Notes: generated from the letters alone by a model not told the origin. Positions 311-35,890 are shown, counted from the stretch's first letter. The stretch is 40,000 bases of DNA from an uncultured Nitrososphaerota archaeon (GCA_963836465.1 CAWIJZ010000071.1:1-40000), one strand, 5' to 3'. Made by a program: numbers and translations.

Positions 311-324
311 CAGATATATGTTTG
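311..324. repeat. Left copy of the casposon target-site duplication (CAGATATATGTTTG; 15 bp if the ambiguous G325 is counted)
   Basis: Identical to 6204-6217. It directly abuts the outer end of the left terminal inverted repeat. Confidence 0.85.
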
Positions 325-426
325 GTGTGGATATGAGTGCCCCCAGAGTGGCCAGAATTGGCTAATCCTGAATACAGATTAGGGCTCTAGTATTTTGTTT
401 GGACTAGGTAAGCGAAAATGACTAGG
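325..426. repeat. Casposon left terminal inverted repeat (TIR-L, ~102 bp)
   Basis: 325-426 (GTGTGGATATGAGTGCCCCCAGAGTGGCCAGAATTGG...GCGAAAATGACTAGG) is the exact reverse complement of 6102-6203. I compared the two block by block and saw no mismatch. Confidence 0.9.
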
Positions 427-790
427 TTAAGTGCGGGATACTAGGGCTTCCACAATCTGAGAATGTTAGACTTGTCTAATGATTAAAGACCTATCTAATT
501 TAGAATTTCTCAAAAAGAAGACCAAAATGGGCTCTTTTGGTCTGCCCCCCGCACTTTTTGAAAAGGCGCTAATAAGAATCAAGCAATTGTTATTACGAAT
601 CACATAACTTTTATTAACTATACTCCTAGGTCTATACCGCATGAACGAAGCACTTTGTTATTAAATCTAGAAAAGCAAAGCTTTATAAGTAAGTAGGCTG
701 TTTTCTACAGATAGGTTTAAATCATGACAAATTTGGGCCTTGATGCGGACAGAGGGAAGAAAGGACAGATAAAGGGAGTGAGTAGGAGCC

Positions 791-985
791 TTGCTCAACA
801 GTAGGGCTTCTTCGCCTCATGGTGGTGTTACTTCTCGCACCTTCATTCCTCTTTATCTCGACACCTCAGAGTTTGAACCTCTGCAACATGAAGCCACTCG
901 GAGAGACATCTCCGTATTCGAGCTCATCCGAGAATATATCCGTGGTGGACTAGACGGTGGGCTAGAGAAAGGTGAGAATACGTGA
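791..985 (+). CDS. Small ribbon-helix-helix (CopG/Arc-like) DNA-binding protein, putative element regulator
   Basis: 64-aa ORF with a TTG start. The pattern is beta strand (TFIPLYLD), helix (TSEFEPLQHEA), then helix (SVFELIREYIRGGL), which is typical of RHH folds. It is the first gene after a ~360-bp non-coding arm. The start codon is uncertain. Confidence 0.45.
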   Translation: MLNSRASSPHGGVTSRTFIPLYLDTSEFEPLQHEATRRDISVFELIREYIRGGLDGGLEKGENT

Positions 986-1108
986 GCTCAGATACAATAT
1001 CAGAAAGAATCAAAAGAGCTCTAAGTTCGGTACTTTCAGATAAAAGGGAAACAAGCTCTAGCTACGTTACTTCCAGAAAAAGGAACTATTTCAAACCAAG
1101 GCGCTATC

Positions 1109-2107
1109 ATGGAGTCTCCAAATACTGGAATGGTCTCAAATGCTTCGCCCACGACACTTAGGGACGGGTCAAAGAACTGGGTCGTCAACTCGTGGGCCGG
1201 TTATGCGGTCTCGATAATCGAAGGGTTTGGCGCCGGACAAACGGTGCTTATCGGGTCGAATAACCAGACTACCCTTACGTTGACGTCCCCTTTTGCTACA
1301 GTTCCTAATTTTCAATCGGTCTATATCATCACTCAGCTCGCGTCTACTTCTACTGCCGTTCTTACGCCTAAAGGATTAATTTCGGTCACATCTTCACAAT
1401 CGACAGCTACAGACATAGAATCGGGCACGTGGACAACTTCGGCCAATACCAATTTCACTATGACCGTAAAAGGAAACGTCGTTGTTTTTGTTGTCGGGAG
1501 CGGCTCAATTCAAGGATATGGTGATACTCTGAAGCTGTTCCTAGATTCTACCGAAATAGAAGCCGGAGCGACCGCTGGTAATCCGGCCACGACCGGATTT
1601 ATCATTCTCTATGGGGGCTTGGCTTCAGTCAGCGCCGGAGTGCATACGCTTTACATGACTTCAAGCGGCAACCAAAGTGCACAAACTCTCACCTACTACA
1701 TCTTTCAGTCGATACTACCGATAATAGGAAAAGCGAAGGCCTATACAGCGAGTGGCAACGTCGGTGCCACTTTTACTTATGGCTCTGGTTCGCTTTCAGT
1801 CCCATATCCTACTGTCTCATCTCTGACTCCGAGCTACACGATTTATGACTACATGGAAGGGTCTGTCTCGGCTCAAGCCTACTCTTTCAACGTGACCGAC
1901 AACTCCGGCAATCCACTCGTTCAAATCACAACTCCGTCCGACACTCCTACGGTTGACGTACTCTATTCGGCCCAATACGTGACTACCGCATCTTTTCCCG
2001 ACGTTCTCACTGGCGTCTCTGTATCTAGTCCAGCTTCCAGTAGGGCATCAACGCAATTCGGGTTTATCGTGCTCGCTCTTCTAAGTCAGGTGGTGCAAAG
2101 TCCATGA
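1109..2107 (+). CDS. Ser/Thr/Gly/Val-rich, probably all-beta protein of unknown function; candidate surface or structural protein of the element
   Basis: 332-aa ORF with an ATG start. Composition is strongly biased. It carries several N-x-S/T sequons (NAS, NQT, NFT, NQS, NVT) and a short hydrophobic C-terminus (FGFIVLALLSQVV). I recognise no enzymatic motif. Its stop overlaps the next ORF's start (ATGA at 2104-2107). Confidence 0.6.
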   Translation: MESPNTGMVSNASPTTLRDGSKNWVVNSWAGYAVSIIEGFGAGQTVLIGSNNQTTLTLTSPFATVPNFQSVYIITQLASTSTAVLTPKGLISVTSSQSTATDIESGTWTTSANTNFTMTVKGNVVVFVVGSGSIQGYGDTLKLFLDSTEIEAGATAGNPATTGFIILYGGLASVSAGVHTLYMTSSGNQSAQTLTYYIFQSILPIIGKAKAYTASGNVGATFTYGSGSLSVPYPTVSSLTPSYTIYDYMEGSVSAQAYSFNVTDNSGNPLVQITTPSDTPTVDVLYSAQYVTTASFPDVLTGVSVSSPASSRASTQFGFIVLALLSQVVQSP

Positions 2108-2274
2108 CAACGAAGGTCGCTCGCGGAGTCTTTAACTTCTACAGTCCGACATTCGAGGCAACCCTTCTTAGTTGGATAACCGGACTTGGCATAACGACCG
2201 TCATTAGCATTTCGTCCGGCTTCGTCCAAAATAGCGGAGTTCTGGAGTTTTGCGCGGTGGTGATATACTCTTGA
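2104..2274 (+). CDS. Small hydrophobic (membrane) protein, 56 aa; below the ORF-track size cut-off
   Basis: The ATG at 2104 overlaps the TGA of the upstream ORF (ATGA). Translation is MTTKVARGVFNFYSPTFEATLLSWITGLGITTVISISSGFVQNSGVLEFCAVVIYS, with a TM-like core. Its TGA at 2272-2274 overlaps a TTG at 2271-2273 that could start the next gene. Confidence 0.4.
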   Translation: MTTKVARGVFNFYSPTFEATLLSWITGLGITTVISISSGFVQNSGVLEFCAVVIYS

Positions 2275-2771
2275 CCGTAAAAGGCTTAGAAAAATGGATA
2301 GCGCAAGAAGCCAAAGCCGAAAAGGCGCTTAGAGCGGCAGCTAGAAAGGGCAAACGAGAACGCAAGGAGCTTCTAGCCTTAGAAGAGGAGCTTCCCAAAG
2401 TCGAATCTCCAAAAGTCGAGCCTCCAAAGCCGGAATCGAAGCCACTCCCTCATTACGTCTTCGAGGCGCCTAGAATTCCCGAGACTCTAGACACTTCGAT
2501 AGCCTCATCGCTCTATGCAGTACCCAGCGCTTCTATTCCTATTCCGGTCGAGTCTCCGGTCATATCTCAGCCCCGACCACATAGAGTCAAAGCGCCTAAG
2601 TCCACGCCCAAGCCCGCACAACCAAGCTCACAACCAAGAGCGCCGGAGAAGAAAAACTCATGGGTGGACTGGCTTCTTATCGGCGTTATCATGTTTGGGA
2701 CTGCTTTTCTCGGTCTCTATGCGATTAAGCGACCACAACCTAAAAGAAAAGAGGTGAAGGGCTTTGCCTAG
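2250..2771 (+). CDS. Tail-anchored membrane protein with a coiled-coil and a Pro-rich spacer, unknown function
   Basis: 173-aa ORF starting at TTG 2250, or at TTG 2271. It has a Lys/Glu-rich N-terminal helix (EKWIAQEAKAEKALRAAARKGKRERKELLALEEEL), a Pro-rich repeat (KVESPKVEPPKPESKP) and a C-terminal TM helix (WVDWLLIGVIMFGTAFLGLYAI) followed by a basic tail. Confidence 0.6.
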   Translation: MRGGDILLTVKGLEKWIAQEAKAEKALRAAARKGKRERKELLALEEELPKVESPKVEPPKPESKPLPHYVFEAPRIPETLDTSIASSLYAVPSASIPIPVESPVISQPRPHRVKAPKSTPKPAQPSSQPRAPEKKNSWVDWLLIGVIMFGTAFLGLYAIKRPQPKRKEVKGFA

Positions 2772-3129
2772 AGGCGTTCCTAGGAAATTAAGCAACGACG
2801 AGCTTTCAAGCATCGCGGTGCTTTTTGATACCGGATGGGCTTATCGAGCGATATCAAAAGTGTTCTCAATCTCTGAGTACCGACTCGTCAAGACAGTCCA
2901 TGCGCTTAAGCTGAACTTCCCAGCGCACACGCGCGCACGTTACGAGCATCAGCATAAAGACTATGCACGAGCGCACAAGCGGCAAATCGACCATCCAGAC
3001 GAGACCTTCTGGAAGGCCTACAGGTATTCGAAAATCAATTCAGAGCTGGGGCTGGACATTCACTTCAACCCAATTAGGAAGAGAGCTAAGGAACTACTCA
3101 AGCGGTTAAGAAAGCGTGGTTCTCCATGA
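2764..3129 (+). CDS. Basic helix-turn-helix protein, unknown function, immediately upstream of polB
   Basis: 121-aa ORF with a TTG start that overlaps the upstream stop by 8 nt. It has an HTH-like segment (LSNDELSSIAVLFDTGWAYRAISKVFSISEYRLVKTV) and a very basic C-terminus (IRKRAKELLKRLRKRG). Its stop overlaps the polB ATG (ATGA at 3126-3129). Confidence 0.55.
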   Translation: MPRGVPRKLSNDELSSIAVLFDTGWAYRAISKVFSISEYRLVKTVHALKLNFPAHTRARYEHQHKDYARAHKRQIDHPDETFWKAYRYSKINSELGLDIHFNPIRKRAKELLKRLRKRGSP

Positions 3130-5192
3130 ACACAATCGAGCCGGAAATTCAGAATCTTCCCCTAATCCATGACTCCCTTAAAGGCGCTAGACTCGACTCC
3201 GTATTCTCGAAGGTTCTAGGTCTCCCTAGGAGAGTTCCTAAAGAGCCTCTAGGCTTCGATATCGAGTCTGACCAGAACGGAGACATTTACCTTATCGCCT
3301 CAGAAAACAAGTATCTCTTTCTCGATGGCCTTCCCCTAGAAGCGCGTTCTATACTTGCGGTGTATTTTCTCTATCAGGAAGGCTTCGGCCACGTTTGCGC
3401 CTTTTTCAATATCGACTATGACTTTCGAGGTATTGTGAAAGGCTTTATCGTGGAGAAGCCAAAAGAAGAACAAAACCAAATCAGAAAATCGAAGCGTATA
3501 GTAGACGGCGAATACACAATCGACTGGATAAAAGGAAAATCTTTCAAAATCAACAACCCTAGACGCGACTGTGTTTGGGCTTATGATACAGCTAATTTCT
3601 TCGACGGCTCTCTAGAATCAGTCAGTCAAAAGTACCTTGGAGAAGGGAAGGGCGAGCTGTCAAACGAAAAGCTTGATATGAAACATCCTGAAAAGTATCT
3701 CCCTACTCCAAAAGGGAGAAAGCTCCTTAGAGAGCGGTGCATGAAAGACGCCGGTCTCGCCGGAGAGTTGTTGCGATATCTTAGGAAACTCTGTCTCGAC
3801 AATCTTGAAATTGACCCTCCACAATATAATTCTGAAGGCGGTCTCTCCGAGTATTACCTCATTAAGAACGTCGAGCTAAAACACCTTAAGCCCTTCGCTA
3901 TCGAGGGCTTTGACGAATGGGGGCACAATATGGGTAAAGACGTCCACAGAAAGCTAACGCCAAAAATCGTCGAACAAAAGGCGCTATATGAGCAAGTCCT
4001 CGAATACGCCTATCGCTCCTATTATGCGGGTATCTTCTATACTCCATGGCGCGGCCCCGTCGATTTTGCCGTGGAGCTCGATATCACTTCAGCATATCCT
4101 TACCAAATGTCAAAACTAATTAGTCTTTCAGACGGAGAATGGAGAGAAGCTCCTAAAGGCAACTATTCGCCGGAAGCTTGTTACGGCTTCTATCACGCTT
4201 TCATGCGGCCAAACGGAGAATTTCCTTTTCGACTTAAAGGAGAAAAGACAATCTATCCAAAATTCGACTCGGAATTTCTAGAGCGATGGGTAACGAAAGA
4301 CGAGCTTGAATACCTTCTTGAAACCAAGTGTCCGGTCAACATGGTTGACGGCTTCGAGTTCTTTCTCGACGACCCCGAGCACTCTGTTTACCCTTTCAAG
4401 AACGCCGTTTCAAAACTCTTCACCTTAAAGAACGAAGCCGAAAAGTCTGGCGATAAAGGACTTAGGCTTCTCTACAAAACCATTCTAAACGGGATGTATG
4501 GCAAGACCGCACAGAACGTCGAGACTCCTTTCTCTGAATACTTCAAGTCTAGAGTTGGAAGGCTCTTCAATCCGGTATACTCTGCAGTCATTACCGCAAG
4601 AACAAGGCTCGTGCTCTGGAAGAGAGCTAAGAAATACCTCGACCCTATTTACTATCTTGCTACCGATGCAGCGTGTGGAAAGCCCCGTCCGGATGTAGGA
4701 ATAGGGCCCGTATCTGACGAGCTGGGGGACTTTCAGATAAAATATCTGGAAGAGAAAGACGGAGAGCCGAGCAGACGATTCTTCACGGGGTGCATCTTAT
4801 TACAAAATGGCGTGATAACGGACTCTAACGGAACATTCATCAAGACTAGAGGCTTCGCAAAACTAGAAGGCAAGAAACTCATTTACGATAAGGAAAAGGG
4901 GTTCGGGGTAATGACAACCCACGTGATGGGCCTTGCAGAGTCGATACGAAGAAAAAGCGCTGAGAAAATCAACTGGTTTGACGAGAAGACCTTCAGAAGC
5001 ATTAACCCAGTAAATGATTTGTTAATCTATCCGAAAGAGCTTTGGGAAAATCCCAGTCTGGTGCTGACAAAAGGATTCAAGTGCGAACCGGTAGACGAGG
5101 CCTTTATGAAGTCGTGGGAAATACCGGAAAAGAGAAAGGCGCCTCAAACGCTTGTAGCAAGTGCTCCCTCAACGCGAAGGCACACTCCGTGA
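3126..5192 (+). CDS. polB: Family-B DNA polymerase (casposon PolB)
   Basis: 688 aa. Recognisable motifs are Exo I (LGFDIESD), Exo II (FFNIDYDFRGI), Pol A (ELDITSAYPYQM, DxxSxYP), Pol B (KTILNGMYGKTAQ, KxxxNxxYG) and a Pol C-like motif (YYLATDAACG). The last is ATD rather than the canonical DTD. Confidence 0.9.
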   Translation: MNTIEPEIQNLPLIHDSLKGARLDSVFSKVLGLPRRVPKEPLGFDIESDQNGDIYLIASENKYLFLDGLPLEARSILAVYFLYQEGFGHVCAFFNIDYDFRGIVKGFIVEKPKEEQNQIRKSKRIVDGEYTIDWIKGKSFKINNPRRDCVWAYDTANFFDGSLESVSQKYLGEGKGELSNEKLDMKHPEKYLPTPKGRKLLRERCMKDAGLAGELLRYLRKLCLDNLEIDPPQYNSEGGLSEYYLIKNVELKHLKPFAIEGFDEWGHNMGKDVHRKLTPKIVEQKALYEQVLEYAYRSYYAGIFYTPWRGPVDFAVELDITSAYPYQMSKLISLSDGEWREAPKGNYSPEACYGFYHAFMRPNGEFPFRLKGEKTIYPKFDSEFLERWVTKDELEYLLETKCPVNMVDGFEFFLDDPEHSVYPFKNAVSKLFTLKNEAEKSGDKGLRLLYKTILNGMYGKTAQNVETPFSEYFKSRVGRLFNPVYSAVITARTRLVLWKRAKKYLDPIYYLATDAACGKPRPDVGIGPVSDELGDFQIKYLEEKDGEPSRRFFTGCILLQNGVITDSNGTFIKTRGFAKLEGKKLIYDKEKGFGVMTTHVMGLAESIRRKSAEKINWFDEKTFRSINPVNDLLIYPKELWENPSLVLTKGFKCEPVDEAFMKSWEIPEKRKAPQTLVASAPSTRRHTP

Positions 5193-6054
5193 ATTTGCTT
5201 TCATATCGTCTCTTGCTCCCCTTCCATGCGCTTAGTCTGCCGGAGACCTCTTGAATGACTTCTCTTCTCGCGTTCTCTCCTAGTCTCACTTGAAAATCTT
5301 GCGTTCTAATGAAGTCACTAAGTGTCACTTTCTTTTCTCTTACTAAGCCCACTGTCGCGCGTTCGACTAGCGAGCGCCCTAATTCCTGAAAATCATAGAC
5401 CAGTGGAGTTTTGTACGGAGCCATTTCATGCAGAAAGCCAATTTGAGCGTCAAGTCCGGCGAAAGCGATGGCCTTTCTACAAGTGCCCGCTAAAATGGAA
5501 TAGCCATAATTTAACATGGCATTTACCGGATTCGTTGCGTGTAAGCTCTGCGCTGAAGGATTGTTTCCTTTACGCCCCAAATAGCTTTTGAAGCTTGGAT
5601 TAGTCCTTATCGCGTTTGTAAATTCTCGGAAAATTTGTGCTGTTAAACTGCCTTCGGCCAAAAGAAGGGCCTTACTGTCTTGAACGCGTTTTATCGAAGA
5701 AAAGTCTTCAAGCCCCGACGTTTGAGCACGACCTTCGACAAACGCTTTTGCAATTGAAAGCTTTCTTCCTCTATCGCAATACGCTTTGTATTGTTGGATT
5801 CTGACTTTGCCGACTTTTGATTCTGAAGGGACTAGAGAGCAATACATCTCCCCGCGTGAGTCTAGAAAGGAAATGGAAGCACCACCATAAGTTAACCACC
5901 GAAGCGCGTCGATTGTGATATAACCTGAGGGAGACGAGAAAACCAAGTTGGCGTTTTTCAGTTTGCCCAAGTCGATTTTCTCCGAGCCGGTATCTAGTCT
6001 GAGATGATTTACCTTTAGATAGGAACTCCTAGAATCAAGTAAAAGGCTTTGCAT
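5104..6054 (-). CDS. cas1: Cas1-family integrase (casposase)
   Basis: 316 aa. The Cas1 hallmarks are ATNPVNAMLNYGYSILAGTC, LDAQIGFLHE (catalytic His region) and PLVYDFQELGRSLVE (acidic D/E-x-x-E-x-R motif), plus an N-terminal beta-domain-like MQSLLLDSRSSYLKVNHLRL. The start lies 48 bp inside TIR-R. The 3' end overlaps the polB 3' end convergently by 89 nt. Confidence 0.9.
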   Translation of the reverse strand: MQSLLLDSRSSYLKVNHLRLDTGSEKIDLGKLKNANLVFSSPSGYITIDALRWLTYGGASISFLDSRGEMYCSLVPSESKVGKVRIQQYKAYCDRGRKLSIAKAFVEGRAQTSGLEDFSSIKRVQDSKALLLAEGSLTAQIFREFTNAIRTNPSFKSYLGRKGNNPSAQSLHATNPVNAMLNYGYSILAGTCRKAIAFAGLDAQIGFLHEMAPYKTPLVYDFQELGRSLVERATVGLVREKKVTLSDFIRTQDFQVRLGENARREVIQEVSGRLSAWKGSKRRYESKFTECAFALREHLLQAFEAPFSFPVFPTTS

Positions 6055-6058
6055 GGCT

Positions 6059-6070
6059 AAACGCGCGTTT
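6059..6070. promoter_or_regulatory. Perfect 12-bp palindrome AAACGCGCGTTT between a TATA-like box and the cas1 start; candidate operator
   Basis: Read on the minus strand, the region is ...AAAGAGTTAATGGCCTAGACAAACGCGCGTTTAGCC-ATG. An AT-rich TTAAT element lies about 25 nt upstream of the cas1 ATG, and the palindrome sits between the two. Confidence 0.3.
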
Positions 6071-6101
6071 GTCTAGGCCATTAACTCTTTTGTCCTTTTG
6101 C

Positions 6102-6203
6102 CCTAGTCATTTTCGCTTACCTAGTCCAAACAAAATACTAGAGCCCTAATCTGTATTCAGGATTAGCCAATTCTGGCCACTCTGGGGGCACTCATATCCA
6201 CAC
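6102..6203. repeat. Casposon right terminal inverted repeat (TIR-R, ~102 bp)
   Basis: Exact reverse complement of 325-426. Confidence 0.9.
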
Positions 6204-6217
6204 CAGATATATGTTTG
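6204..6217. repeat. Right copy of the casposon target-site duplication (CAGATATATGTTTG; G6218 makes it 15 bp)
   Basis: Identical to 311-324 and directly abuts TIR-R. Confidence 0.85.
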
Positions 6218-6343
6218 GGGACCGCGCGAAGTCGCTGCCTCCACGCTCGGCAGTGTGAGCGGTGCCCTTATGGTTCTCACTGCCAACGTATCCTTGTGCT
6301 CTGATTCAGTGAATGAAACCTTGGTAATTTCTTCAGCTTTTTC

Positions 6344-8425: not shown

Positions 8426-9432
8426 GTAGCATCTTCTATGAATATGCCGTTCTTCAGCCTCTTCTGTTCCTCGATGAGCTCTGGTTCTCCGGGTATCAGA
8501 ATCTCCTTCACTCCTGGCGCCTTTTTGCTCATCCTGACCCTACTGATCGTTTCATCGAGTCTTCGCTTGAACGCAGCGACCGGCCCGAACCTTGAGATGT
8601 CAATCGTCAGCATGAAAACCCCGTTGCCACCAGAAAACCCCTTTGCTTTCAGCATTGAAACCCCTTTGCTCGAGGCGCTCCCGTTTCCGCTCAACGCGCC
8701 ACTCAGAATATCGACTAGGAAGGCCAGTCCATAACCCTTGTACCCGACATTTCCACCAATTGGGAGGATGGAACCACCGTTGAAGAAATCATCAGGCTCG
8801 ACGCTAGGAGCACCGTTCTTGTCAACTATCCACCCTTCGGGAAGCTTTTCGCCTCTTGCCTTCTTCACAGCTATCTTGCCCACCGCGCAAACGCTCATGC
8901 ATATGTCCAGCGAGAATGGATGCTGCTTGTCGCCAGTAGGGACGGCCGCGCCGAGGGGACTCGGGTTGAACATCCTTTCTATGCCCCCGAAAGGCGCCAC
9001 CGATGGATATGAGTTGACCATTGTGATTCCGATCATATCTTCTTTCATAGCCATTAGAGAATAGTCAGCCATTCTTCCAATGTGTCCGCAGTTGTAGATG
9101 CAAAACGCGGACACGCCGAATTTCTTTCCCTTTTCAATTGCCATCCTCATAGCCTGAGTCGCAACCACCTGTCCGAATCCCGCGTTACCGTTGATCAGAC
9201 CCATGGCGCCATCGTCGACTTCAAGGACACCTTTCGCCTTTGGATTCAGTTTTCCCTCGTCTATCTCCTTGACGTAGGGCATTATCCGAATGACACCATG
9301 AGAGTCGTGTCCAGCCAGATTAGCCTTCACGAGAAGGTCCGAAACCGTTTCAGCGTTCTCGTCCGAGGCGCCTTTCCTTGAGAAGATTGCTCTAGTCAGC
9401 GACTTGAGCTGGTCAGCGCGAATGTTTGGCAT
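8347..9432 (-). CDS. Ldh_2-family oxidoreductase (type-2 malate / L-lactate / sulfolactate dehydrogenase family)
   Basis: 361 aa. Family-typical segments are LAGHDSHGVIR, GFGQVVATQAM and NPSPLGAAVP...FSLDICMSVCAVGKI. Confidence 0.75.
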   Translation of the reverse strand: MPNIRADQLKSLTRAIFSRKGASDENAETVSDLLVKANLAGHDSHGVIRIMPYVKEIDEGKLNPKAKGVLEVDDGAMGLINGNAGFGQVVATQAMRMAIEKGKKFGVSAFCIYNCGHIGRMADYSLMAMKEDMIGITMVNSYPSVAPFGGIERMFNPSPLGAAVPTGDKQHPFSLDICMSVCAVGKIAVKKARGEKLPEGWIVDKNGAPSVEPDDFFNGGSILPIGGNVGYKGYGLAFLVDILSGALSGNGSASSKGVSMLKAKGFSGGNGVFMLTIDISRFGPVAAFKRRLDETISRVRMSKKAPGVKEILIPGEPELIEEQKRLKNGIFIEDATWDEITSIARTLHVNVPRPMGLKPVQ

Positions 9433-9502
9433 GACGGCGTTCGTGAGCCATTTAGCTCGCTATAAGAGTTCCCAACTATTAGGTTAGATTCGACGTGTCT
9501 GA

Positions 9503-10020
9503 TTCGATTGTCAAACCACAGTCTCGATCCTCCTGGTCCTCGCGTGGGCCGGTTATGAAGTTGGATTCCATGGACGGCGAACATCCATGGGATTGAGAAC
9601 GCCACTTTTGCTCATCTCGTGCGGGCTCTGCAAGGAGATTTGCCCGGTGGACATCGACATTCCCATGATGATCGCGAAGGTCAAGAGTCAGGAGATTGCG
9701 CTGGACGGCCAGCTCAATCTCAGAGAATCCGACCGCAGACTTATCGCCACAGAGAGCAGCGTGTGCGCCATGCAGTCGAACGATGGACTCCACGCGAGGG
9801 TGATGCATCCACTCTACTTCGTCAAGCCCGAGTTGGTGAGTTAATATGTCATCGGCATTTCCCCGCCGAAAGCTTCTGGGACCTCTGCAACGGATGCTCT
9901 GGTTCCGTGGTTGCGCCAAGCAGACGAAGTGAACTCCTGTTGGAGTCCGAGTCGGGGGATGCACTGTCGCCCTTCTGCCCCAACAATGGCAGTGTCGCAG
10001 GCCTGCGAACAGGTTAGGGG
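9503..10020 (+). pseudogene. Possible remnant of an Fe-S (ferredoxin-type / CCG-domain, GlcF/HdrD-like) oxidoreductase gene
   Basis: One frame reads LLLISCGLCKEICPVDIDIPMMIAKVK, a CxxCxxxCP 4Fe-4S motif. Downstream, a different frame holds Cys-rich pieces (CNGCSG..., ...DALSPFCPNNG...). No single long frame is convincing, and the ~600-bp gap is too short for a full-length homolog. Confidence 0.3.
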
Positions 10021-10041
10021 TTTAATTACCAGTGCACGCAG

Positions 10042-10554
10042 GTGCCTGTTTGTGCTGGCATGAGGTACACAGAGAACGCGATGAAGCTCCTGGCGTGCAC
10101 CGACTTCGGAGAGATATTCGAGCTAGTCAAGACGGCCGCGGAGCAGTCGCTAGGCATGCACCGGGCGGGACTTACGCTCGTCCTCGGGGACCTCCCGAAC
10201 TCCGTAGGCGCGTACCACGAGCTCGGTTCGAACTCGATAGTGATGAACCGCAACCTCGTGAAGGTAGTTTGGGAGATAAGCGACTCCCAAAACATGAGGA
10301 ACTCCTATGTGTTCATGATACTCCTCCATGAGTACCTCCACAGCCTCGGGTTCGCGGACGACGCCCAGGTGAGAGAGCTGAGCGAGAGGATATCAACGGA
10401 CTACTTGGGGGATGGACACGTTGCAGCCGAAATGGCCGTGAACTCGCTCGAAAAGTTCTTCCCGGATGTGGGACGCTACACGATGTTCCGCGACCGTGGC
10501 GCGTACGAGACTGTCAGGAAGTTCGACTCTTCGAGCACTTCCTATATCGCATAG
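10042..10554 (+). CDS. Hypothetical protein with an HExxH zinc-metallopeptidase-like motif
   Basis: 170-aa ORF containing ILLHEYLHSLGF (HExxH). The real start may be an internal Met (MRYTENAMKLL...). Confidence 0.55.
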   Translation: MPVCAGMRYTENAMKLLACTDFGEIFELVKTAAEQSLGMHRAGLTLVLGDLPNSVGAYHELGSNSIVMNRNLVKVVWEISDSQNMRNSYVFMILLHEYLHSLGFADDAQVRELSERISTDYLGDGHVAAEMAVNSLEKFFPDVGRYTMFRDRGAYETVRKFDSSSTSYIA

Positions 10555-10636
10555 CGACCATAGGGGTTTCAGTCGTCCCAAGCACCCTACAGCGTAAATG
10601 TAGGTTCTTTCGGGCCTCGAGTGGAGCGCCTTAGGC

Positions 10637-12245
10637 ATGATTGATGTGCCTACGATAGTTCTTGGCATCGCCTTCTCCTGGATCAGGATGATACTGGCGC
10701 TCAGTCTGAGCATCGTGTTCGCGCTCGTGGTCGGAATTACAGCAGCGAGGAACAAGCGGGCGGAGGCGGTGATACTGCCGCTGCTAGACGTTTTCCAGTC
10801 AATTCCGATTCTAGGGTTCTTCCCCATCATCATCTATGGTATCTACTCCGTTCTGCCCAACGATATTGGTGCCAACCTTGCGGTGATTGTCCTAATCTTC
10901 ACCAGCATGTCCTGGAACATTGCCTTCGGTGTCTACGAGGGCGTCAAGGCAATACCACAAGACTATGTAGACCTGCTGGACATGTCCAAGGCGAGCGCGT
11001 GGCAGAGGACGAAGTCGTTGTACATTCCCGCCTCCCTTAGCCGCATCGCCTACAATACGCAAGTTTCTTGGGCCGTCGGCCTATTCTTTCTCGTTTCGAG
11101 TGAGATTATCACCCTGGGAACTCGCATAGTTCCAATCAAGTATGGTATAGGAATCGCGGCAATGAACTTCGCCAGCAGTAATCCACCTGACTATGTTAAC
11201 TACACACTCTCGATAGTAGCTCTCATCGTGACCGTCGTTGTGTGGAGGTTCGTCTTTCTTAGGGAATTCGCGCTCTGGTCAGAGCGGTACAAGATGATGG
11301 AAGAGCCAAGAGAAGCTCACAGAGATCCCATCATGAGATTTTACTCCTGGGTGAATCAAAGAAGTGTCTCCAAACTGTTTCTGCTGACGCAAGGAAGAGG
11401 TGTGAACAGGTTCACATCGGCAATCTACAGGTTCAGGAGGGGAATCAAGTACGCCGTCGCGATCTTGCTCGTTGTGTTCGTGCTGTTTGAGCTAGGTGCA
11501 ACAATGAGCGTTGGAGGTGCGGGTCTGCGCCCACTTCCTCAGGCTTCGGTTCTGCTTTCAGACGAGGGGCAGGTACTCTTCGCGCTTGCCAGCTCTTTTC
11601 TGAGGGTTTGGTACGTCTATGCTATTTGCGCTGCGATCGGGCTCCCACTTGGCATAGTCATATCTCTGAACTTCAAGCTCTACGACACGGTCTCTCCGAT
11701 TCTGGAAGTGATATCCTCGATCCCTGGTCCGATACTACTTCCGGTGTATAATCCTGATTCCCGTGATTGGCACATCTGGAGAGGCGGTAGCCGCAATAAT
11801 CATTATGTTAGCGATTATCTGGTACGTGATTTTCAACGTGATGGCTGGGGTCAGGACGCTACCGGCTGACCTCAAGGACCTTCCCAAAGAGTTCCACGTT
11901 TCGAGATTCTCGGCGTGGAGGAATGTCTACATTCCAGGCTCCATAACGGCTTTCGTAACAGGCTCGATAACCGCGATTGGGGGCGCGTGGAATGCACTGA
12001 TTGTAGCCGAGTACTTTACGTCCCAACGTTCTGTGTGTGTGAATGGAAAGGTCGTCAGCGCCAATGTCCTCACGCAAGTAGGCGCAGGAATAGGCAAGTC
12101 CATAACACTCGCTACTGCCTGTAACGACATCACTATGCTCACACTCGCTGTTCTTTCGATGACTGCTCTTATCGTGGCGTTCAACCTGATAGTCTGGAGG
12201 AGGGTGTACCATCACGCAACGAAACGCTATGCATACAACAGATAA
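10637..12245 (+). pseudogene. ABC transporter permease with two tandem permease domains (NitT/TauT-like); interrupted by one +1 frameshift as sequenced
   Basis: ORF 10637-11869 and ORF 11763-12245 are the two halves of one gene. Domain 1 reads LDVFQSIPILGFFPIIIYG. Domain 2 reads LEVISSIPGPILLPV and breaks near 11748-11751, then continues in the +1 frame as IILIPVIGTSGEAVAAIIIMLAIIWYVIFNVMAGVRTLP. Removing one A from the AA at 11750-11751 would give LLPVYILIPVIG. Confidence 0.75.
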
Positions 12246-12331
12246 GCGAAGGGCGCAACATAGTGATTGGCACGTTTAAATTCCCGGAACTACTGCGTTT
12301 TGTGTAAGAAAGAGTTGGTGCATCTGCGCAA

Positions 12332-13150
12332 ATGAAAGAGAATTCTAATACAGGACTCACACCACTGACAGAACTCATTTCGCTCAGGAACAAGAAGAGC
12401 ATTGATTACTGGCTCTGGAACGGGCATTGGCGAAGCTATTGCCAAGAGATTCGCTGAAGCCGGTGCTAACTTGGATTTTGTCGATATCGATGAAGAAGGA
12501 CTGAACAAGGTGAAGGGAAGGCTCGAGGGGTCTGATTCGAAAAAGATAGACATCCGCAGAGTCGACCTGTCCGGGAAAAGGGAAATAGACGCTCTCTGGA
12601 CGAAACTGGAAGGGAATGAGCCAGACATATTGGTAAACAATGCTGGAATCTATCCTACCAGAGTCGTTCCTAGACGTAGATGAAGCCTTCTTGAGGAAGG
12701 TGATGGATGTCAATCTGAACTCCGTTTTCTGGATGTGCCAGCACATGATAAAGAGCAGACTGAAAAAAGGTGGCGTAATCATCAATACGGCTCAATCGAA
12801 GCGGTAATGCCGCTGAAGGAGAGACCTGTCCCATTACGACATCAGTAAGGCGGGGATTATGGTTCTCTCGAGAGCATCTGGCAAGTGAATATGGCAAGCG
12901 CGGTTCAGGATAAATGTTCTAGTGTTCGGGCGGAATATGGACTGCGGGAACCAAGAACTTGGCAAAAGAAGCGACAAAGTTCAAGTTTAATGTCGTCAAG
13001 TACGGGCATCGAATACGGCATGAGGACTCCTATGAAGAGAATGGGAAAGCCAGACGAGATCGCACGTATGGCTTTGGTTCTCGCGAGTGACTTGTCGAGT
13101 TATGTAAACGGACGCTGATGGTCGTCGACGGAGGCTTTCTTTCAGCGTAG
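12332..13150 (+). pseudogene. Short-chain dehydrogenase/reductase (classical SDR), heavily frameshifted
   Basis: SDR pieces are scattered over all three frames, in order: MKENSNTGLTPLTELISLRNKK; ALITGSGTGIGEAIAKRFAEAG...ILVNNAGIYPT; SFLDVDEAFLRKVMDVNLNSVFWMCQHMIKSRLKKGGVIINT; DLSHYDISKAGIMVLSRA (YxxxK); LASEYGKRG; GIEYGMRTPMKRMGKPDEIARMALVLASDLSSYVNG; LMVVDGGFLSA-stop. That requires at least five frame changes in about 820 bp. Confidence 0.8.
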
Positions 13151-13368
13151 AGTCTCCCTATTGCTAACAGAAATGCACGGCAAGGGAGAACCCGGGCTGC
13201 TCGAATAATCGAGAAGATGCCCCTTTCCGCGCTATTGTGAGTCCCTGAAATCGTCGTACTTCCGGATGCTCCCGTGATACCTCTTCTTGGCGAGCTTCCT
13301 GCTCCTCCTGTACAGCACGAGGATCTCCCTCCAGAAACCGTAAATAACCACGTCCGAGCGGATAGCTC

Positions 13369-14619
13369 ATGAGCGAAAGACTGAATCCTTTTGAAAATGC
13401 ACTCGAGCAGCTCGACATCGCTGCTAAACAACTGAAGCTGGACCCGGGAATTCACGCAATCCTAAGGTCACCGAAGAAAATCCTTACGGTATCTATCCCG
13501 ATACGTATGGACAACGGAAAGACCAAGGTATTCACGGGGTACAGGGTTCAGTACAACGATGCCAGAGGGCCTTACAAGGGCGGAATCAGGTACCACCCGC
13601 AGGTCACCCTAGACGAGGTGAAGGCTCTCTCTGCTTGGATGACATGGAAGTGCAGCGTGGCGGACATACCCTTCGGAGGAGCGAAGGGAGGCGTCATCTG
13701 CGACCCCAAGGCCATGTCACAGGGAGAGCTCGAGAGGATGACGAGAAGGTACACAAGCGGTATTGCTGGAATAATAGGACCATTCCAGGACATTCCAGCT
13801 CCCGATGTCTACACGAACTCGCAGACCATGGCTTGGATCGAGGACACGTACAGCCAAATGAAAGGCTACATGGTGCCGGGAGTGGTCACCGGAAAGCCGT
13901 TGTCGGTTGGTGGGTCACTGGGAAGAGACAAGGCGACTGGTAGGGGTGCGGCCTTCTGCACCCGAGAAGCGGCGAAGGTGCTGAGGCTCAACCTGAAGAA
14001 CACCACCATGGCGGTGCAGGGATATGGGAACGCCGGTTCGAACTTCGCCATAATCATGCAGGACATGGGAGCCAAGCTGATTGCTGCGACAGACTCCAAG
14101 GGAGGCATCATAAACAGAAAGGGACTCGACGCGAGAAAAGTGCTCGAGCACAAGGAAAAGACAAGCTCTGTCGTGGGCTTTCCTGGAGCTGAAGCAATCT
14201 CCAACGAGGAGGTGCTCCAGACGGAGTGCGACATACTCTCACCATCTGCCCTCGAAAACGCGATCACCAAGGACATAGCCAAGGGCGTGAAGGCGAAGAT
14301 AATCGCAGAGTGTGCTAACGGTCCAACTACCCCAGAAGCTGACAAGATAATCGATGCAAACAAGATACTCCTCATTCCGGACATCCTGGCGAACTCGGGT
14401 GGGGTGATAGTGAGTTATCTGGAGTGGGTTCAGAACCTCGAGAGGCTCTTCTGGTCAGAGGAGGAAGTCAACGACAAGCTAGAGAGGAAGATCACAGGAG
14501 CGTTTGCAGGCGTGCACAAGCAGTCCACCAAGAGCAACGTCTCCATGAGGACAGCCGCAATGATGGTCGGTGTGGGAAGAGTAGCAGAAGCCATCAAGAG
14601 CCTCGGTCTCTGGCCATAG
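13369..14619 (+). CDS. gdhA: Glutamate dehydrogenase (intact copy)
   Basis: 416 aa. Motifs are KGGIRYHP and IPFGGAKGG, with an NAD(P)-binding segment VAVQGYGNAGS and a C-terminal ANSGGVIVSYLEWVQN. Confidence 0.92.
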   Translation: MSERLNPFENALEQLDIAAKQLKLDPGIHAILRSPKKILTVSIPIRMDNGKTKVFTGYRVQYNDARGPYKGGIRYHPQVTLDEVKALSAWMTWKCSVADIPFGGAKGGVICDPKAMSQGELERMTRRYTSGIAGIIGPFQDIPAPDVYTNSQTMAWIEDTYSQMKGYMVPGVVTGKPLSVGGSLGRDKATGRGAAFCTREAAKVLRLNLKNTTMAVQGYGNAGSNFAIIMQDMGAKLIAATDSKGGIINRKGLDARKVLEHKEKTSSVVGFPGAEAISNEEVLQTECDILSPSALENAITKDIAKGVKAKIIAECANGPTTPEADKIIDANKILLIPDILANSGGVIVSYLEWVQNLERLFWSEEEVNDKLERKITGAFAGVHKQSTKSNVSMRTAAMMVGVGRVAEAIKSLGLWP

Positions 14620-15200
14620 GAGTCGGCTAGCCGGAGCGAATCAGCTTCACAAGCTCCTCGACCAGGCTCGTATTTCCAAGGCCATCGGAGCCAGCTCGTA
14701 CAGGATCCGCAGCTTCCCCTTGGGTTTTGCCCTGAGTGCGGGATAGCCGAAGGAAAGAAAGCGGTACAGTGAGCTATGGACACCTATCAGCGGATAACAA
14801 CAGTGATATCACCATGGCACATGCCTATCTCACCTTCTTCTTGGTCCGTGGGACAAATCGGGATAAGCAGAGATGGCGAAATCATCTTTGGGAAGGGTTG
14901 ACAGCTAGGGGACAGTGAGATTCGGGTTGGCCTGCTCCGTGGACGGGAGCTTTGGGAGAGGACCTTGGCATCACTAACTCCACACTGAGGCCCACGTTCG
15001 GATGATAGACCTTGCTTTGTTGTAACAGAATTGCACAACGAAAGGTTCACTGGGTTTCGGACCGAGCTAATTAGCCGTATCCGACAGAAAATGTAGACTA
15101 TCGTACCGGATCAAGACAAGGCTTGCGAGATGGTACGCAGGATCATGCGAGACGTTTCATGTGATGTTTTCCACAACCAAACTGACCAGGATGTGTATGA

Positions 15201-15413
15201 CTATTTTCGCATGGCTTCCAAACCTTTCTCGGTGAGTGATCCCTCCGCGCTGACGTAACCATCTATTTGGAGCCTGGCCACTTCCTTACCCACAACTGCG
15301 GGTTCAACTTTGGTTACCTCCGATATCTCCTGAAGACTTCTCTTGTCGCTTAAGTGATGCAAAATTGCTAGGTCCAACTCGGATAGCCTTGTTGCCTCCG
15401 CTTTCTCTTCCAT
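15201..15413 (-). CDS. Small winged-helix (MarR/ArsR-like) DNA-binding protein
   Basis: 70 aa. LSELDLAILHHLSDKRSLQEISEVTKVEPAVVGKEVARLQIDGYV fits an HTH plus wing pattern. Confidence 0.55.
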   Translation of the reverse strand: MEEKAEATRLSELDLAILHHLSDKRSLQEISEVTKVEPAVVGKEVARLQIDGYVSAEGSLTEKGLEAMRK

Positions 15414-15759
15414 TTCCTTCTGCGCCCCTCTTCCATTTCGTCTCCATTAAGTCTTCTCCAATGTTAGGAAGGTCGGCGCGCGCAAGTTGAATGGCAAGCC
15501 ACGGCCAAGGCGTTCGTTTGATGGGCTTGGAATTCACTTACAGAGCCCATCCAGGTTCTGGCCCGACTGGGCCCGCTTTTTCCTAAACCGTCGCCGGGAC
15601 TGGTGGAGTCTGACTCAGCATTACTTACCCTCGTTAGTCGCAGGGAAAGCAATGTTTGTTGCAACAATAGCTCAGAATCAAGATTCAGTTTCTTAGGGTC
15701 GTCAGTAAGGGACCATCTAGCGTCGACAAGGTTCATTAGGGTAAGACAACACCTAGTAG

Positions 15760-17376: not shown

Positions 17377-17436
17377 TATTCCAGGGCAACTCATAATGCA
17401 TATAACAGATGAGTTGAGGGCGCAGCAGAGCTGAAG

Positions 17437-18273
17437 GTGGGAACAATGGAGAGCAACGTCGCATATCCATCCCCGAATGCATCAGTAAGAACTACGGGAG
17501 AAAACAAGTCTGGACTGGGTGAACCAACCATCAGCGTTGAGCATGTCGGTCTGGATTACGTGAAAGAGAAAGAATCGCTGCCCGTTCTCGTAGACGTCAC
17601 CTTCCAAACGTTCAAGGACGAATTCGTGATGATTACTGGCCCGTCGGGGTGTGGCAAGTCGACACTGCTCAGAATAATCAGCGGCCTCATCAAGCCGACG
17701 TCCGGCCTCGTCAGGTTCAGGGACAAGGAGATACTCAATCCGAGGAACGAGATAGGGATGGTCTTCCAAAACTTCGTGCTTCTGCCATGGAGGACCTCGT
17801 ACGAGAACGTTATGTTCGGACTCGCGTCAAGGGCGGACCTCTCCGAGGAGGAGAAGAAGCAACGTTCTTTGAAAGCGCTTGAAGACGCCGGTCTGAAGGG
17901 ATTTGAGGACGTGTACCCAGGCGAATTGTCTGGTGGAATGAAGCAGAGGGTTGGTGTTGCTCGCGCCGTCGCATTGGAACCTCAGGTTCTACTAATGGAC
18001 GAACCCTTCAGCTCACTGGACGACCTGTCGGCCGACCATCTGAGGAAGGAGGTGTACGCTTTGCTCATGAATCCCTCGTCGCCCATCCAGACGGTTATCA
18101 TGGTCAGCCACAATGTCGAGGAGATAGTCGAACTGGCGGACAAGGTCGTGATTCTCTCGAAGCGCCCAGCGAGGGTGGTCGGCGAGCTAACGATAGACCT
18201 CCAAAGACCCCGCAACAAGAAGTCCGATGAGTTCTTCAGCTGGGTGGACAAGATATACTCGTTCCTGGCCTAG
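17437..18273 (+). CDS. ABC transporter ATP-binding protein (NitT/TauT nitrate/sulfonate/bicarbonate type)
   Basis: It has Walker A (GPSGCGKST), the Q-loop region, the ABC signature (LSGGMKQRV), Walker B (LLMDEPFSSLD) and the H-loop (VSHN). The start is GTG 17437 or ATG 17446. Confidence 0.9.
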   Translation: MGTMESNVAYPSPNASVRTTGENKSGLGEPTISVEHVGLDYVKEKESLPVLVDVTFQTFKDEFVMITGPSGCGKSTLLRIISGLIKPTSGLVRFRDKEILNPRNEIGMVFQNFVLLPWRTSYENVMFGLASRADLSEEEKKQRSLKALEDAGLKGFEDVYPGELSGGMKQRVGVARAVALEPQVLLMDEPFSSLDDLSADHLRKEVYALLMNPSSPIQTVIMVSHNVEEIVELADKVVILSKRPARVVGELTIDLQRPRNKKSDEFFSWVDKIYSFLA

Positions 18274-18316
18274 GCAAGCAGATATATTGTGCCAGTAATC
18301 TGTAGCCACTAGAGAA

Positions 18317-18841
18317 TTGAACAGAGACGTAACGCGCAGGAACGTAGACACTCTTCAGAGCGGGCCGGTCATGCCCGCCAATGTCAGGGCGGGTCAGGTG
18401 ATAGGTCTGGTCGAGGTGACTGGCGGGCTCGACTCGGCCATCGATGCATCACGCCTCGCAGACGAGTTCGGTTCAGATATAGCCACTTTTCTCCCCATTC
18501 TGGACGCCGCGGAGATGCTAGGATTGGTGAAGAACGAAAACGGAGATATCTCGCTGACCGAGTTCGGGCGCAAGTTCCAGAAGACAGCAAAGCACAAAGT
18601 AATGCTGCTGAAGCAGACCCTGACCAAGATTGAGCCGTTCAAAACTAGTCTGGACCTCGCGGCGGCAAGACGCAGTTTCTCTGCCCATGACGTGGCAGAG
18701 GCACTGCGCGCGAAGGGGATAACCTGGCACCACAACCACGAGGTCAACGAGACGCTCGTTCAGTCGATGCTACTCCACTGGGTAATATACGGAGGCCTCC
18801 TAATGTACTCTGGCAAGACTGGGCAGTACCAGAAATGTTAG
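18317..18841 (+). CDS. Stand-alone protein resembling the C-terminal AAA-associated domain found on NitT/TauT-type ABC ATPases
   Basis: It lies directly downstream of the ATPase. GQVIGLVEVTGG...DASRLADEFGSDIATFLPILDAAEMLGLVKNENGDISLTEFGRKF matches my recollection of that domain. The true start is more likely the internal ATG (MPANVRAG...). Confidence 0.55.
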   Translation: MNRDVTRRNVDTLQSGPVMPANVRAGQVIGLVEVTGGLDSAIDASRLADEFGSDIATFLPILDAAEMLGLVKNENGDISLTEFGRKFQKTAKHKVMLLKQTLTKIEPFKTSLDLAAARRSFSAHDVAEALRAKGITWHHNHEVNETLVQSMLLHWVIYGGLLMYSGKTGQYQKC

Positions 18842-34170: not shown

Positions 34171-34444
34171 GAAGGTGCCAACTGTTTTGGTGATATTTAC
34201 GTCATGCGCCGAACTGCTAAACCGAAGTCGTCTTCAGGAGCGCTGTCGGTCATTAGGTCATTTGAGACGACGACTTGGTCAACAGTGTCACTATCAAGGC
34301 ACCTGCAATCCACAAACCGAGAGTTCGGTCAAAACAGACCAGAGGAGAAAGACCTGGTCTCGCGGTTTTCCCTAGGTCTACTCTAGGCTCCTAGCTCGCT
34401 ACAGCATGACAGTACCGTAAAAGTACGGAAATGCCAAAAACCAT

Positions 34445-34542
34445 TTGACCGATTTGACGTATTCGACCGATCTGACCGATACTAGAGCTCCTTTGACCGT
34501 CATTTGACCGTTCATTTGACGCGTTTGACCGATCTGACCGGC
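34445..34542. repeat. Array of nine degenerate TTGACCGAT-like direct repeats (iteron-like), arranged as 4 + 5 copies
   Basis: The YTGACS / TCGACC core starts at 34445, 34454, 34463, 34472 (strict 9-bp register), then at 34493, 34504, 34516, 34525, 34534. The sequence reads ttgaccgat ttgacgtat tcgaccgat ctgaccgat - actagagctcct - ttgaccgtcat ttgaccgttcat ttgacgcgt ttgaccgat ctgaccggc. Confidence 0.85.
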
Positions 34543-35724: not shown

Positions 35725-35890
35725 GGAGCTGCCTATCTATTTCTTTCTTTGTCAGGAGCTGCCTATCTATTTCTTTCTTTGTCAGGAGCTGCCTATCTAT
35801 TTCTTTCTTTGTCAGGAGCTGCCTATCTATTTCTTTCTTTGTCAGGAGCTGCCTATCTATTTCTTTCTTTGTCAGGAGCTGCCTATCTAT
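35725..35890. repeat. Perfect tandem repeat: 30-bp unit GGAGCTGCCTATCTATTTCTTTCTTTGTCA, 5 full copies plus a 16-bp partial copy
   Basis: Copies start at 35725, 35755, 35785, 35815, 35845 and 35875 (partial), with no mismatches seen. The array begins 15 nt upstream of the aldo/keto reductase ATG (35709, minus strand) and ends 33 nt from the stop of the disrupted gdh copy. Confidence 0.95.

Follow-up and report, generated by a model that had tools for sequence, protein, structure and literature searches.

Casposons of family 1 have been described from thaumarchaeal hosts, and they carry a family-B DNA polymerase of the protein-primed type, a compact Cas1 without extra domains and three to four small upstream genes (PMC4046053, PMC6563490). 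The gene for a terminal protein usually lies immediately upstream of that for the polymerase, as has also been noted for family 1 casposons (PMC4046053). The family 1 casposase of N. koreensis, a protein of 347 aa without a helix-turn-helix (HTH) domain, is active in vitro and gives a 13-bp target duplication; the family 2 casposases give duplications of about 14 bp and need their HTH domain (PMC8464041). According to Table S2 of a 2019 paper, family 1 casposons range in size from 6,419 to 19,376 bp, and all of their inverted repeats carry a run of C5-6 about 14 nt from the tip. In the proposed family 5 from hot springs, the Cas1 proteins form a clade beside subtype I-A Cas1, and most members have no polymerase gene (PMC9755687). 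Here, we analysed a stretch of 40,000 nucleotides from an uncultured Nitrososphaerota archaeon (GCA_963836465.1 CAWIJZ010000071.1:1-40000), which is called the window below, and found a Cas1 gene and a polymerase gene enclosed by terminal inverted repeats and a short direct repeat. We consider it highly probable that positions 325-6203 are an intact autonomous casposon, which has inserted between genes of a Nitrososphaerota-like archaeal chromosome, comes closest to family 1 by gene content, forms a separate and very divergent lineage with the metagenomic element L120 as the only other member found, and uses Cas1 integration together with protein-primed replication.

The ends of the element are sharply defined. 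The terminal inverted repeats of 102 nt are perfect (325-426 is the exact reverse complement of 6102-6203, with 0 mismatches), and the identity breaks off sharply at the inner edge. Just outside them lies the direct repeat CAGATATATGTTTGG, which has exactly two copies in the window, at 311-325 and 6204-6218. In a shuffle control that tolerated 2 mismatches, none of the 100 shuffles contained two matches. G325 can be assigned to the direct repeat or to the inverted repeat, so that the duplication is either 14 or 15 bp long. We preferred inverted repeats at 325-426 and 6102-6203 with a 14-bp duplication, because the related element L120 likewise opens with 5'-GTGTG. On this reading of the sequence, the favoured boundaries would be 325 and 6203, giving an element of 5,879 bp. 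Its 3' ends read ...ATATCCACAC-3' (terminal ...CCACAC-3'), and the reconstructed empty site is ...GAAATACTCG-CAGATATATGTTTG-GGGACCGCGCG... The 27-nt tip of the inverted repeat is present at the two ends, with no third site in the window. The left inverted repeat also contains a 6-bp hairpin (CTAATC...GATTAG) and short direct repeats (GACTAGG x2).

The inverted repeats and the duplication both fall inside the published ranges, which are 25-602 nt and 1-27 bp. The first-pass annotation, made from the sequence alone, had given the size of described casposons as roughly 8-20 kb and had placed the element below them. The lower limit of this range is too high, as the published sizes begin near 6 kb (family 2 at 6-16 kb; NitDev-C2 at 6,419 bp). 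The element is indeed smaller than the smallest published thaumarchaeal casposon that we found (6,419 bp), but by only ~540 bp, and this gap is not a separate size class.

The integrase of 316 aa matches Cas_Cas1 (PF01867, E 5.7e-43) and TIGR00287 (E 7e-40). Among solved structures, its best match is the Methanosarcina mazei casposase 6OPM (E 3e-39), and the CRISPR Cas1 structures match at 1e-19 or weaker. The catalytic residues are kept as E134 (LAEGS), H209 (GFLHE) and E224 (DFQE), and they align with the active site of 6OPM, where the corresponding segments are EGT, GFLHE and DLQE (EGS, GFLHE and DFQE in the window). The alignment ends at residue 328 of the 431 residues of 6OPM, ahead of the HTH of that protein. 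In the window protein, the Cas1 domain extends to about residue 289, and the 27 aa that follow it are encoded within the overlap with the polymerase gene. This indicates that the window Cas1 lacks the C-terminal HTH of family 2 casposases.

The polymerase of 688 aa matches DNA_pol_B_2 (PF03175, the organellar and viral, protein-primed type of family-B polymerase) with E 4.4e-14, and phage DNA polymerase PHROGs match as well; no solved structure was matched by sequence. We identified the exonuclease motifs Exo I (D45/E47), Exo II (N95/D99) and Exo III (D208), and the polymerase motifs A (D319, DITSAYP), B (K451-G459, KTILNGMYG, with K451...Y458 G459) and C (T513-D514). All of these motifs are invariant in an alignment with the seven closest relatives. 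Only about 40 residues precede Exo I, so that the polymerase has no fused terminal protein. In an exhaustive HMMER search, the polymerase had 44 matches below 1e-30, the best of them at 38% identity (E 7e-72), and in the public collections searched neither enzyme of the element exceeded 36-38% identity to any protein. When four proteins of the element were looked up in a collection of 15 billion proteins, all four were one-member clusters.

The polymerase and Cas1 genes are convergent, and their 3' ends overlap by 89 nt (5104-5192). The overlap falls in the non-conserved tail on the Cas1 side, and on the polymerase side it includes part of a conserved C-terminal motif. An overlap of this kind fits strong compaction.

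No CRISPR or spaced-repeat array was detected in the 40-kb window, and PADLOC found no Cas model in the 44 flanking open reading frames (ORFs) of at least 75 aa. The locus had been read in the first-pass annotation as a casposon that encodes a 316-aa Cas1 and a 688-aa family-B polymerase between perfect repeats of about 102 nt and a 14/15-bp duplication, with no cas2, cas4 or CRISPR repeat in the 40 kb. Each of these observations was reproduced, the repeats base for base. The catalytic triad of Cas1, the protein-primed polymerase, the repeats, the duplication, the lack of a CRISPR-Cas context and the homologous element L120 together uphold the identification as a casposon.

By gene content, a family-1-like casposon is the best fit. 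Like NitAR1-C1, NitDev-C2, NitEve-C1 and others of family 1 (Krupovic 2014, 2019), the element encodes a protein-primed family-B polymerase and a compact Cas1 without an HTH or a zinc-binding extension. Small uncharacterised genes are located directly upstream of the polymerase gene, and Cas1 lies at one end and faces the others, as in family 1. The subterminal C5-6 run in the inverted repeats, which is also present in L120, is shared too, the host is probably of the Nitrososphaerota type, and NitEve-C1 likewise has an intergenic target. However, the window Cas1 is only 30-36% identical to the Nitrosopumilus-type Cas1 group and does not nest in it in our tree, and the polymerase is longer (688 aa compared with ~594 aa) and has its nearest relatives in Cas1-less small replicons and in L120. 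The repeats of the window element are long (102 nt) and start with GTGTG, whereas the repeat end of N. koreensis has a TTCTA motif; the duplication is 14/15 bp in the window compared with 13 bp measured for N. koreensis. The target also differs, as it is not an EF-2 gene, the length of 5,879 bp is below the family 1 range, and the accessory genes have no detectable match. In particular, the ORFs at 982-3129 gave no BLAST match to the three loci fetched from Nitrosopumilus-type Cas1 matches (L089-L091), and no family match. A canonical family 1 locus that was also fetched, L181, is truncated by the end of its contig.

One of these three loci, L090, has an arrangement of its own. It contains two 410-aa Cas1 genes of the Nitrosopumilus type (10001-11233 and 17397-18629), which are inverted and about 6 kb apart. 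A CDC48_N-domain gene lies within a few kb outside each of them, and no polymerase was recognisable on the locus.

With family 2 (AciBoo-C1, the M. mazei elements and 6OPM), the window element shares the catalytic triad, the best structure match and a duplication of ~14 bp. In contrast to family 2, its Cas1 has no C-terminal HTH and its polymerase is protein-primed rather than RNA-primed. Neither an HNH nuclease nor the two conserved HTH proteins of family 2 were detected in the window, and a search of every ORF of the element for HNH in Pfam, PHROGs and NCBIfam was negative. The element also has no tRNA-gene target: ARAGORN and Rfam found no tRNA in the 40 kb, and no Rfam family was found there.

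The CRISPR Cas1-Cas2 complex has a homologous integrase with the same catalytic residues, and its staggered integration likewise leaves a duplication, of the size of the repeat. Unlike that system, the window has no Cas2, array or other Cas protein within 40 kb, and its Cas1 falls in the casposase part of the tree. Compared with family 5 as described, the window element carries a polymerase, and its Cas1 groups with families 1-3.

These placements come from a neighbour-joining tree of Cas1 (114 sequences, 336 columns, 200 bootstraps), in which we told the reference groups apart by organism name and locus context rather than by curated sets. The window Cas1 was located in the casposase half with a bootstrap of 0.87, apart from CRISPR Cas1. 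It forms a lone long branch beside a clade of L120 and the Nitrosopumilus-type proteins, which has a support of 0.895 without the window Cas1, and the Methanolobus casposases are the next group outward. The nearest Cas1 proteins (30-36% identity) are mostly ~410 aa long and come from Nitrosopumilus-type genomes and metagenomes. On this tree, the window Cas1 appears to sit among the casposases but in no family.

The related element L120 (Ga0209061_1000008, locus 8586-15464, on a 791-kb contig) was found by a scan of metagenome contigs with the polymerase alignment. It is 6.9 kb long and encodes a polymerase of 691 aa (31% identity to that of the window, E 1e-70) and, convergent to it, a Cas1 of 335 aa (31% identity, E 3e-28; Pfam E 2e-35). 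Its inverted repeats of ~150 nt are 97% identical (8586-8735 and 15316-15464), and its direct repeat is the 16-bp GTGCGGGGGGTGGGAT. A terminal motif, GTGTG...GCCCCCA, is common to both elements (window, GTGTGGATATGAGTGCCCCCAG; L120, GTGTGCAATTACCGCCCCCAC; pattern, GTGTGNNNNNNNNNGCCCCCA). L120 therefore resembles the window element in a polymerase of ~690 aa that faces a compact Cas1, in the tip of the repeats, in an HTH-like upstream ORF and in a duplication of 14-16 bp. The upstream ORF of L120 encodes 116 aa and is similar to the 121-aa ORF of the window (pairwise E 1e-4 over the N-terminal 34 aa); in L120 a small ORF is located between it and the polymerase gene, whereas the 121-aa ORF overlaps the polymerase start. 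The two elements differ in that their enzymes are only ~31% identical, in size, in the longer and imperfect repeats of L120 and in its tRNA site. The remaining genes of L120 are unrelated to those of the window and are placed between the polymerase and Cas1 genes. The ribbon-helix-helix (RHH)-like ORFs of the two elements have no significant similarity to each other.

The right flank of L120 (15465-15625, minus strand) looks by eye like the 3' half of a gene for a tRNA-Leu(CAG)-like molecule, which has an intron of ~65 nt where introns canonically lie. ARAGORN and Rfam both miss this gene, which is the integration target of L120. The M. mazei casposons likewise target the 3' end of a tRNA-Leu(-like) gene. 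We also observed three perfect 90-nt tandem copies in L120 (11939-12224), within a 107-aa cargo ORF just past the polymerase gene.

The features of the window element are listed in Table 1.

Table 1. Coordinates of the features of the element, counted from the first nucleotide of the window.
Feature	Position	Strand	Basis or remark
Left copy of the target-site duplication, CAGATATATGTTTG	311..324	none	15 bp counting G325
Left terminal inverted repeat, 102 nt	325..426	+	Tip 5'-GTGTGGATATGAGTGCCCCCAGAGTGG
A+T-rich stretch without convincing genes	427..790	none	Hairpin at 519-543; no Rfam match
RHH-like ORF, 64 aa	791..985	+	RHH_1 E 0.026, under Pfam's threshold
Basic ORF (22% Lys+Arg), 59 aa	982..1161	+	GTGA overlap with the preceding stop; no homolog found
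Ser/Thr-rich ORF, 332 aa	1109..2107	+	28% Ser+Thr, 2% Lys+Arg; one-member cluster
Moderately hydrophobic ORF, 56 aa	2104..2274	+	ATGA overlap with the preceding stop
ORF, 173 aa	2250..2771	+	Charged N-terminus, proline-rich middle, one clear transmembrane helix (residues 138-160)
Basic ORF (21% Lys+Arg), 121 aa	2764..3129	+	ATGA overlap with the polymerase start
Family-B DNA polymerase, protein-primed type, 688 aa	3126..5192	+	PF03175, motifs
Cas1-family integrase (casposase), 316 aa	5104..6054	-	Pfam, NCBIfam, structure-sequence match
Right terminal inverted repeat	6102..6203	-	Exact reverse complement of the left repeat
Right copy of the target-site duplication	6204..6217	none	15 bp counting G6218

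The seven plus-strand ORFs extend from 791 to 5192. Five of their neighbouring junctions overlap, three of them as 4-nt start-stop overlaps (GTGA or ATGA), which suggests a single operon. The stretch at 427-790 is probably its promoter and regulatory region, and the first ORF encodes a putative transcription regulator of 64 aa. The basic 121-aa product has three short, HTH-like N-terminal helices in a low-confidence model (predicted local distance difference test, pLDDT, 50). Its position and composition make it the best candidate for a terminal (priming) protein or a DNA-end-binding protein. Among the products of 59, 332, 56 and 173 aa, a clear transmembrane helix was found in the 173-aa protein only.

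The left non-coding region also contains a hairpin with a 9-bp stem at 519-543 (AGACCAAAA...TTTTGGTCT), followed by GCCCCCCGCAC (to 556). Ten nucleotides of 519-556 are identical to the 3' end of the tRNA-Leu-like gene into which L120 has inserted, a match with a chance of ~1%. We considered the segment as an internal tRNA-like remnant and rejected it: there was no Rfam or tRNA signal and the folding z-score was -1.2, so that the match is probably coincidental.

The mechanism is expected to be the known casposon one. The 316-aa Cas1 would bind the repeat ends and join their 3'-OH (...CCACAC-3') to target strands about 14 bp apart, and gap repair by the host would then yield the target duplication. 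The excised or looped-out element would be copied from its ends by its own polymerase, with a protein primer, for which the basic 121-aa product is the likeliest choice. Because GTGTG is reiterated at the 5' terminus, the ends would permit a sliding-back or jumping-back step, which is typical of protein-primed replication (phi29, PRD1, adenovirus). A protein on the 5' ends would keep the 3'-OH ends free for Cas1, and the small RHH-like protein would probably regulate the seven-gene plus-strand operon.

Several observations weigh against this account. The support for the window Cas1 joining the clade of L120 and the Nitrosopumilus-type proteins is only 0.39; phylogeny bore out the casposase nature of the protein suggested in the first-pass annotation and gave no family assignment. 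Moreover, the tree is a neighbour-joining one and does not include named reference casposases of families 1-5. Motif C of the polymerase reads ATDAA, and the first Asp of the classical DTD is missing, a feature common to the closest relatives. The accessory ORFs matched no family and no fetched casposon (Pfam, PHROGs, NCBIfam, PDB sequences and ~180 fetched loci). By position, the upstream ORFs are putative counterparts of the conserved small genes of family 1, such as arCOG14992, and they had no match in L089-L091 or the profile libraries. The terminal-protein role of ORF 2764-3129 is proposed from its position and composition, its model has the low pLDDT given above, and the TATA box described below for the duplicated segment is one that we infer. 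Finally, the JGI metagenome contigs, IMG/VR and the window yielded no empty site, second copy or excision junction.

The window element and L120 may also be read together as an undescribed casposon lineage, a bolder view that we advance tentatively and hold as a possibility short of even. In this lineage, a deep Cas1 of 316-335 aa without an HTH would be combined with a protein-primed polymerase of ~690 aa, from a separate clade that also includes small Cas1-less linear replicons, and with long GTGTG...GCCCCCA repeats. It would stand between family 1, which it resembles in polymerase type and in the missing HTH, and family 2, with which it shares a duplication of ~14-16 bp and, in L120, a tRNA-Leu target. 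The window copy would then be the smallest autonomous self-synthesizing transposon on record, with a gene set near the minimum for integration by Cas1 and protein-primed replication.

Returning to the casposon itself, a recent insertion and continued mobility are plausible, although the insertion is undated. This view is based on the exact repeats and duplication, the open ORFs, the intact catalytic residues and the composition of the element. The GC content is 46.6% in the element and 53.9% in the flank, and the third-position GC was lower in all five element genes tested, so the composition has not shifted toward that of the host. The zero mismatches over about 230 nt are a weak clock for the age of the insertion. 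We searched the JGI metagenome contigs exactly for the duplicated segment with the right flank, a pattern that would match filled and empty sites alike, and obtained 0 matches; the tip of the inverted repeat had no match in the IMG/VR viral contigs. An orthologous empty site was not found, as the contigs with the closest homologs of the adjacent cyclase gene (60% identity) have unrelated neighbours. Of the recent and possibly still mobile insertion proposed in the first-pass annotation, the exact repeats stand, to which we add the undrifted GC, and the search for the empty site that it had suggested gave no match, with no syntenic relative; current mobility is what we infer from the features above.

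The same observations bear on the idea that the casposon is immobilised, seemingly intact or on its way to domestication, with repeats kept perfect by homogenisation or a low mutation rate. The failure to find an empty site or a second copy fits this idea, as do the absence from its Cas1 of the HTH that family 2 casposases need (PMC8464041) and the weak clock provided by the identical repeats (204 nt). We nevertheless regard it as unlikely. All eight ORFs are open, with five overlapping junctions, both enzymes have intact catalytic residues, and in vitro activity is known from a family 1 casposase without an HTH (PMC8464041). The GC content has not drifted toward that of the host, and the repeats of L120 are already at 97% identity, which indicates that inverted repeats in this lineage do diverge.

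The relatives of the polymerase raise another alternative, namely that the element is an integrated small virus-like or plasmid-like linear replicon. Such a replicon would be protein-primed and use Cas1 as its integrase, perhaps with an extrachromosomal vesicle or particle phase, and its 332-, 56- and 173-aa proteins would be structural or transfer proteins. Among the 94 loci fetched in or after the polymerase searches, no polymerase relative other than L120 carries Cas1; four of the 94 carry Cas1 but came in through Cas1 relatives. Most of the other loci are contigs of 8-11 kb with all genes on one strand, and these Cas1-less contigs are probably small linear viruses or plasmids. The polymerases of His1 and His2 are also detectable relatives (relatives in IMG/VR, taken as these archaeal viruses, at ~1e-13), the cargo includes one clear membrane protein, and the 332-aa ORF matches the jelly-roll capsids of picornavirus VP1 very weakly (E 0.24). 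However, this similarity does not exceed chance, a pLDDT of 31 makes the structure model of the 332-aa protein unusable, and the protein has no signal peptide or strong transmembrane helix. Searches of Pfam, PHROGs, NCBIfam and PDB revealed no capsid, packaging ATPase or other virion hallmark, and the entirely different cargo of L120 argues that the cargo is not a conserved module. His1, His2 and the 8-11 kb metagenomic contigs share a homologous polymerase with the window element but have no Cas1, and the contigs L086-L088, unlike the window element, have all genes on one strand and showed no terminal inverted repeats. Overall, we find this alternative very unlikely.

A family of Cas1-less metagenome contigs (L121-L147, for example L122, 1-10786) is ~7-11 kb long, mostly 9.5-10.8 kb, and several of them come from related samples. 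Their polymerase gene is near one end, and they probably represent small linear viruses or plasmids in complete form, with a relative of the casposon polymerase.

The casposon is also seen in a second assembly. A Logan contig of run ERR10755942, which was assembled independently, equals positions 6205..3237 of the window base for base, and part of the interior is also present in a second Logan contig. The first contig stops 2 nt past the inverted repeat, where the flanks of the two junctions (CAG... and CAA...) part, as expected if the reads hold both junctions. The right arm and the interior were therefore reproduced independently. Although the contig is metagenome-assembled and short-read assemblers struggle with 100-nt inverted repeats, an artefact of mis-joining is hardly credible, since a chimera would not give a 14/15-bp host direct repeat exactly outside both arms, the Logan assembly breaks just where the flanks diverge, and a homologous element with the same architecture is present on the unrelated 791-kb contig.

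The flanks of the casposon carry ordinary archaeal housekeeping genes, including archaeal-type F420 biosynthesis, GatB, MoaC and dehydrogenases. The best named relative of the adjacent cyclase gene is in a Nitrososphaerota metagenome-assembled genome (60% identity), and nothing was closer than 65%. The insertion is intergenic, 126 bp beyond the cyclase stop and 22 bp upstream of the ATG at 288 (minus strand), which starts a 96-aa ORF fragment that leaves the window and has no Pfam match. On the minus strand, the duplicated segment reads CCAAACATATATCTG, with ATATAT located 26-31 nt ahead of the ATG at 288. This ATATAT is probably the TATA box of a leaderless or short-leader host mRNA, and the casposon appears to have landed in the core promoter of the adjacent host gene. 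Since the duplicated segment holds the ATATAT, the host gene probably keeps a copy of its core promoter beside it.

Elsewhere in the window, we observed a perfect intergenic tandem repeat of 30 nt x 5.5 at 35725-35890 (GGAGCTGCCTATCTATTTCTTTCTTTGTCA, 100% identical), just upstream of the start (35709) of the minus-strand ORF 34894-35709; it was rejected as a CRISPR array because it has no spacers. Short degenerate repeats, ATTTGACCG and TTTGACCGTCA, occur at 34443-34540 in an apparently non-coding stretch. In the right flank (6219-40000), PADLOC matched mad3 (E 1.4e-29), mad8 (1e-10) and AriA/PtuA-type ATPases to one flanking ORF each, and these matches may reflect generic ATPase or housekeeping similarity rather than defence genes.

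The CRISPR adaptation machinery is proposed to descend from casposons, of which few complete and intact examples are known, especially with protein-primed polymerases. The element described here is a complete and very divergent casposon, that is, a known type of element, and possibly the first described representative of a new lineage. Its exact ends, its exact target and an integrase of 316 aa without accessory domains make it convenient for studying how a Cas1 without an HTH recognises ends and targets. It is also suited to asking how protein-primed replication and Cas1 integration share the same DNA ends. Its small size sets a lower limit on the length of autonomous elements of its type and may interest those who engineer casposases for site-specific insertion. 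Taken together, the window element and L120 show that this clade of polymerases moves between Cas1-bearing transposons and Cas1-less small replicons.

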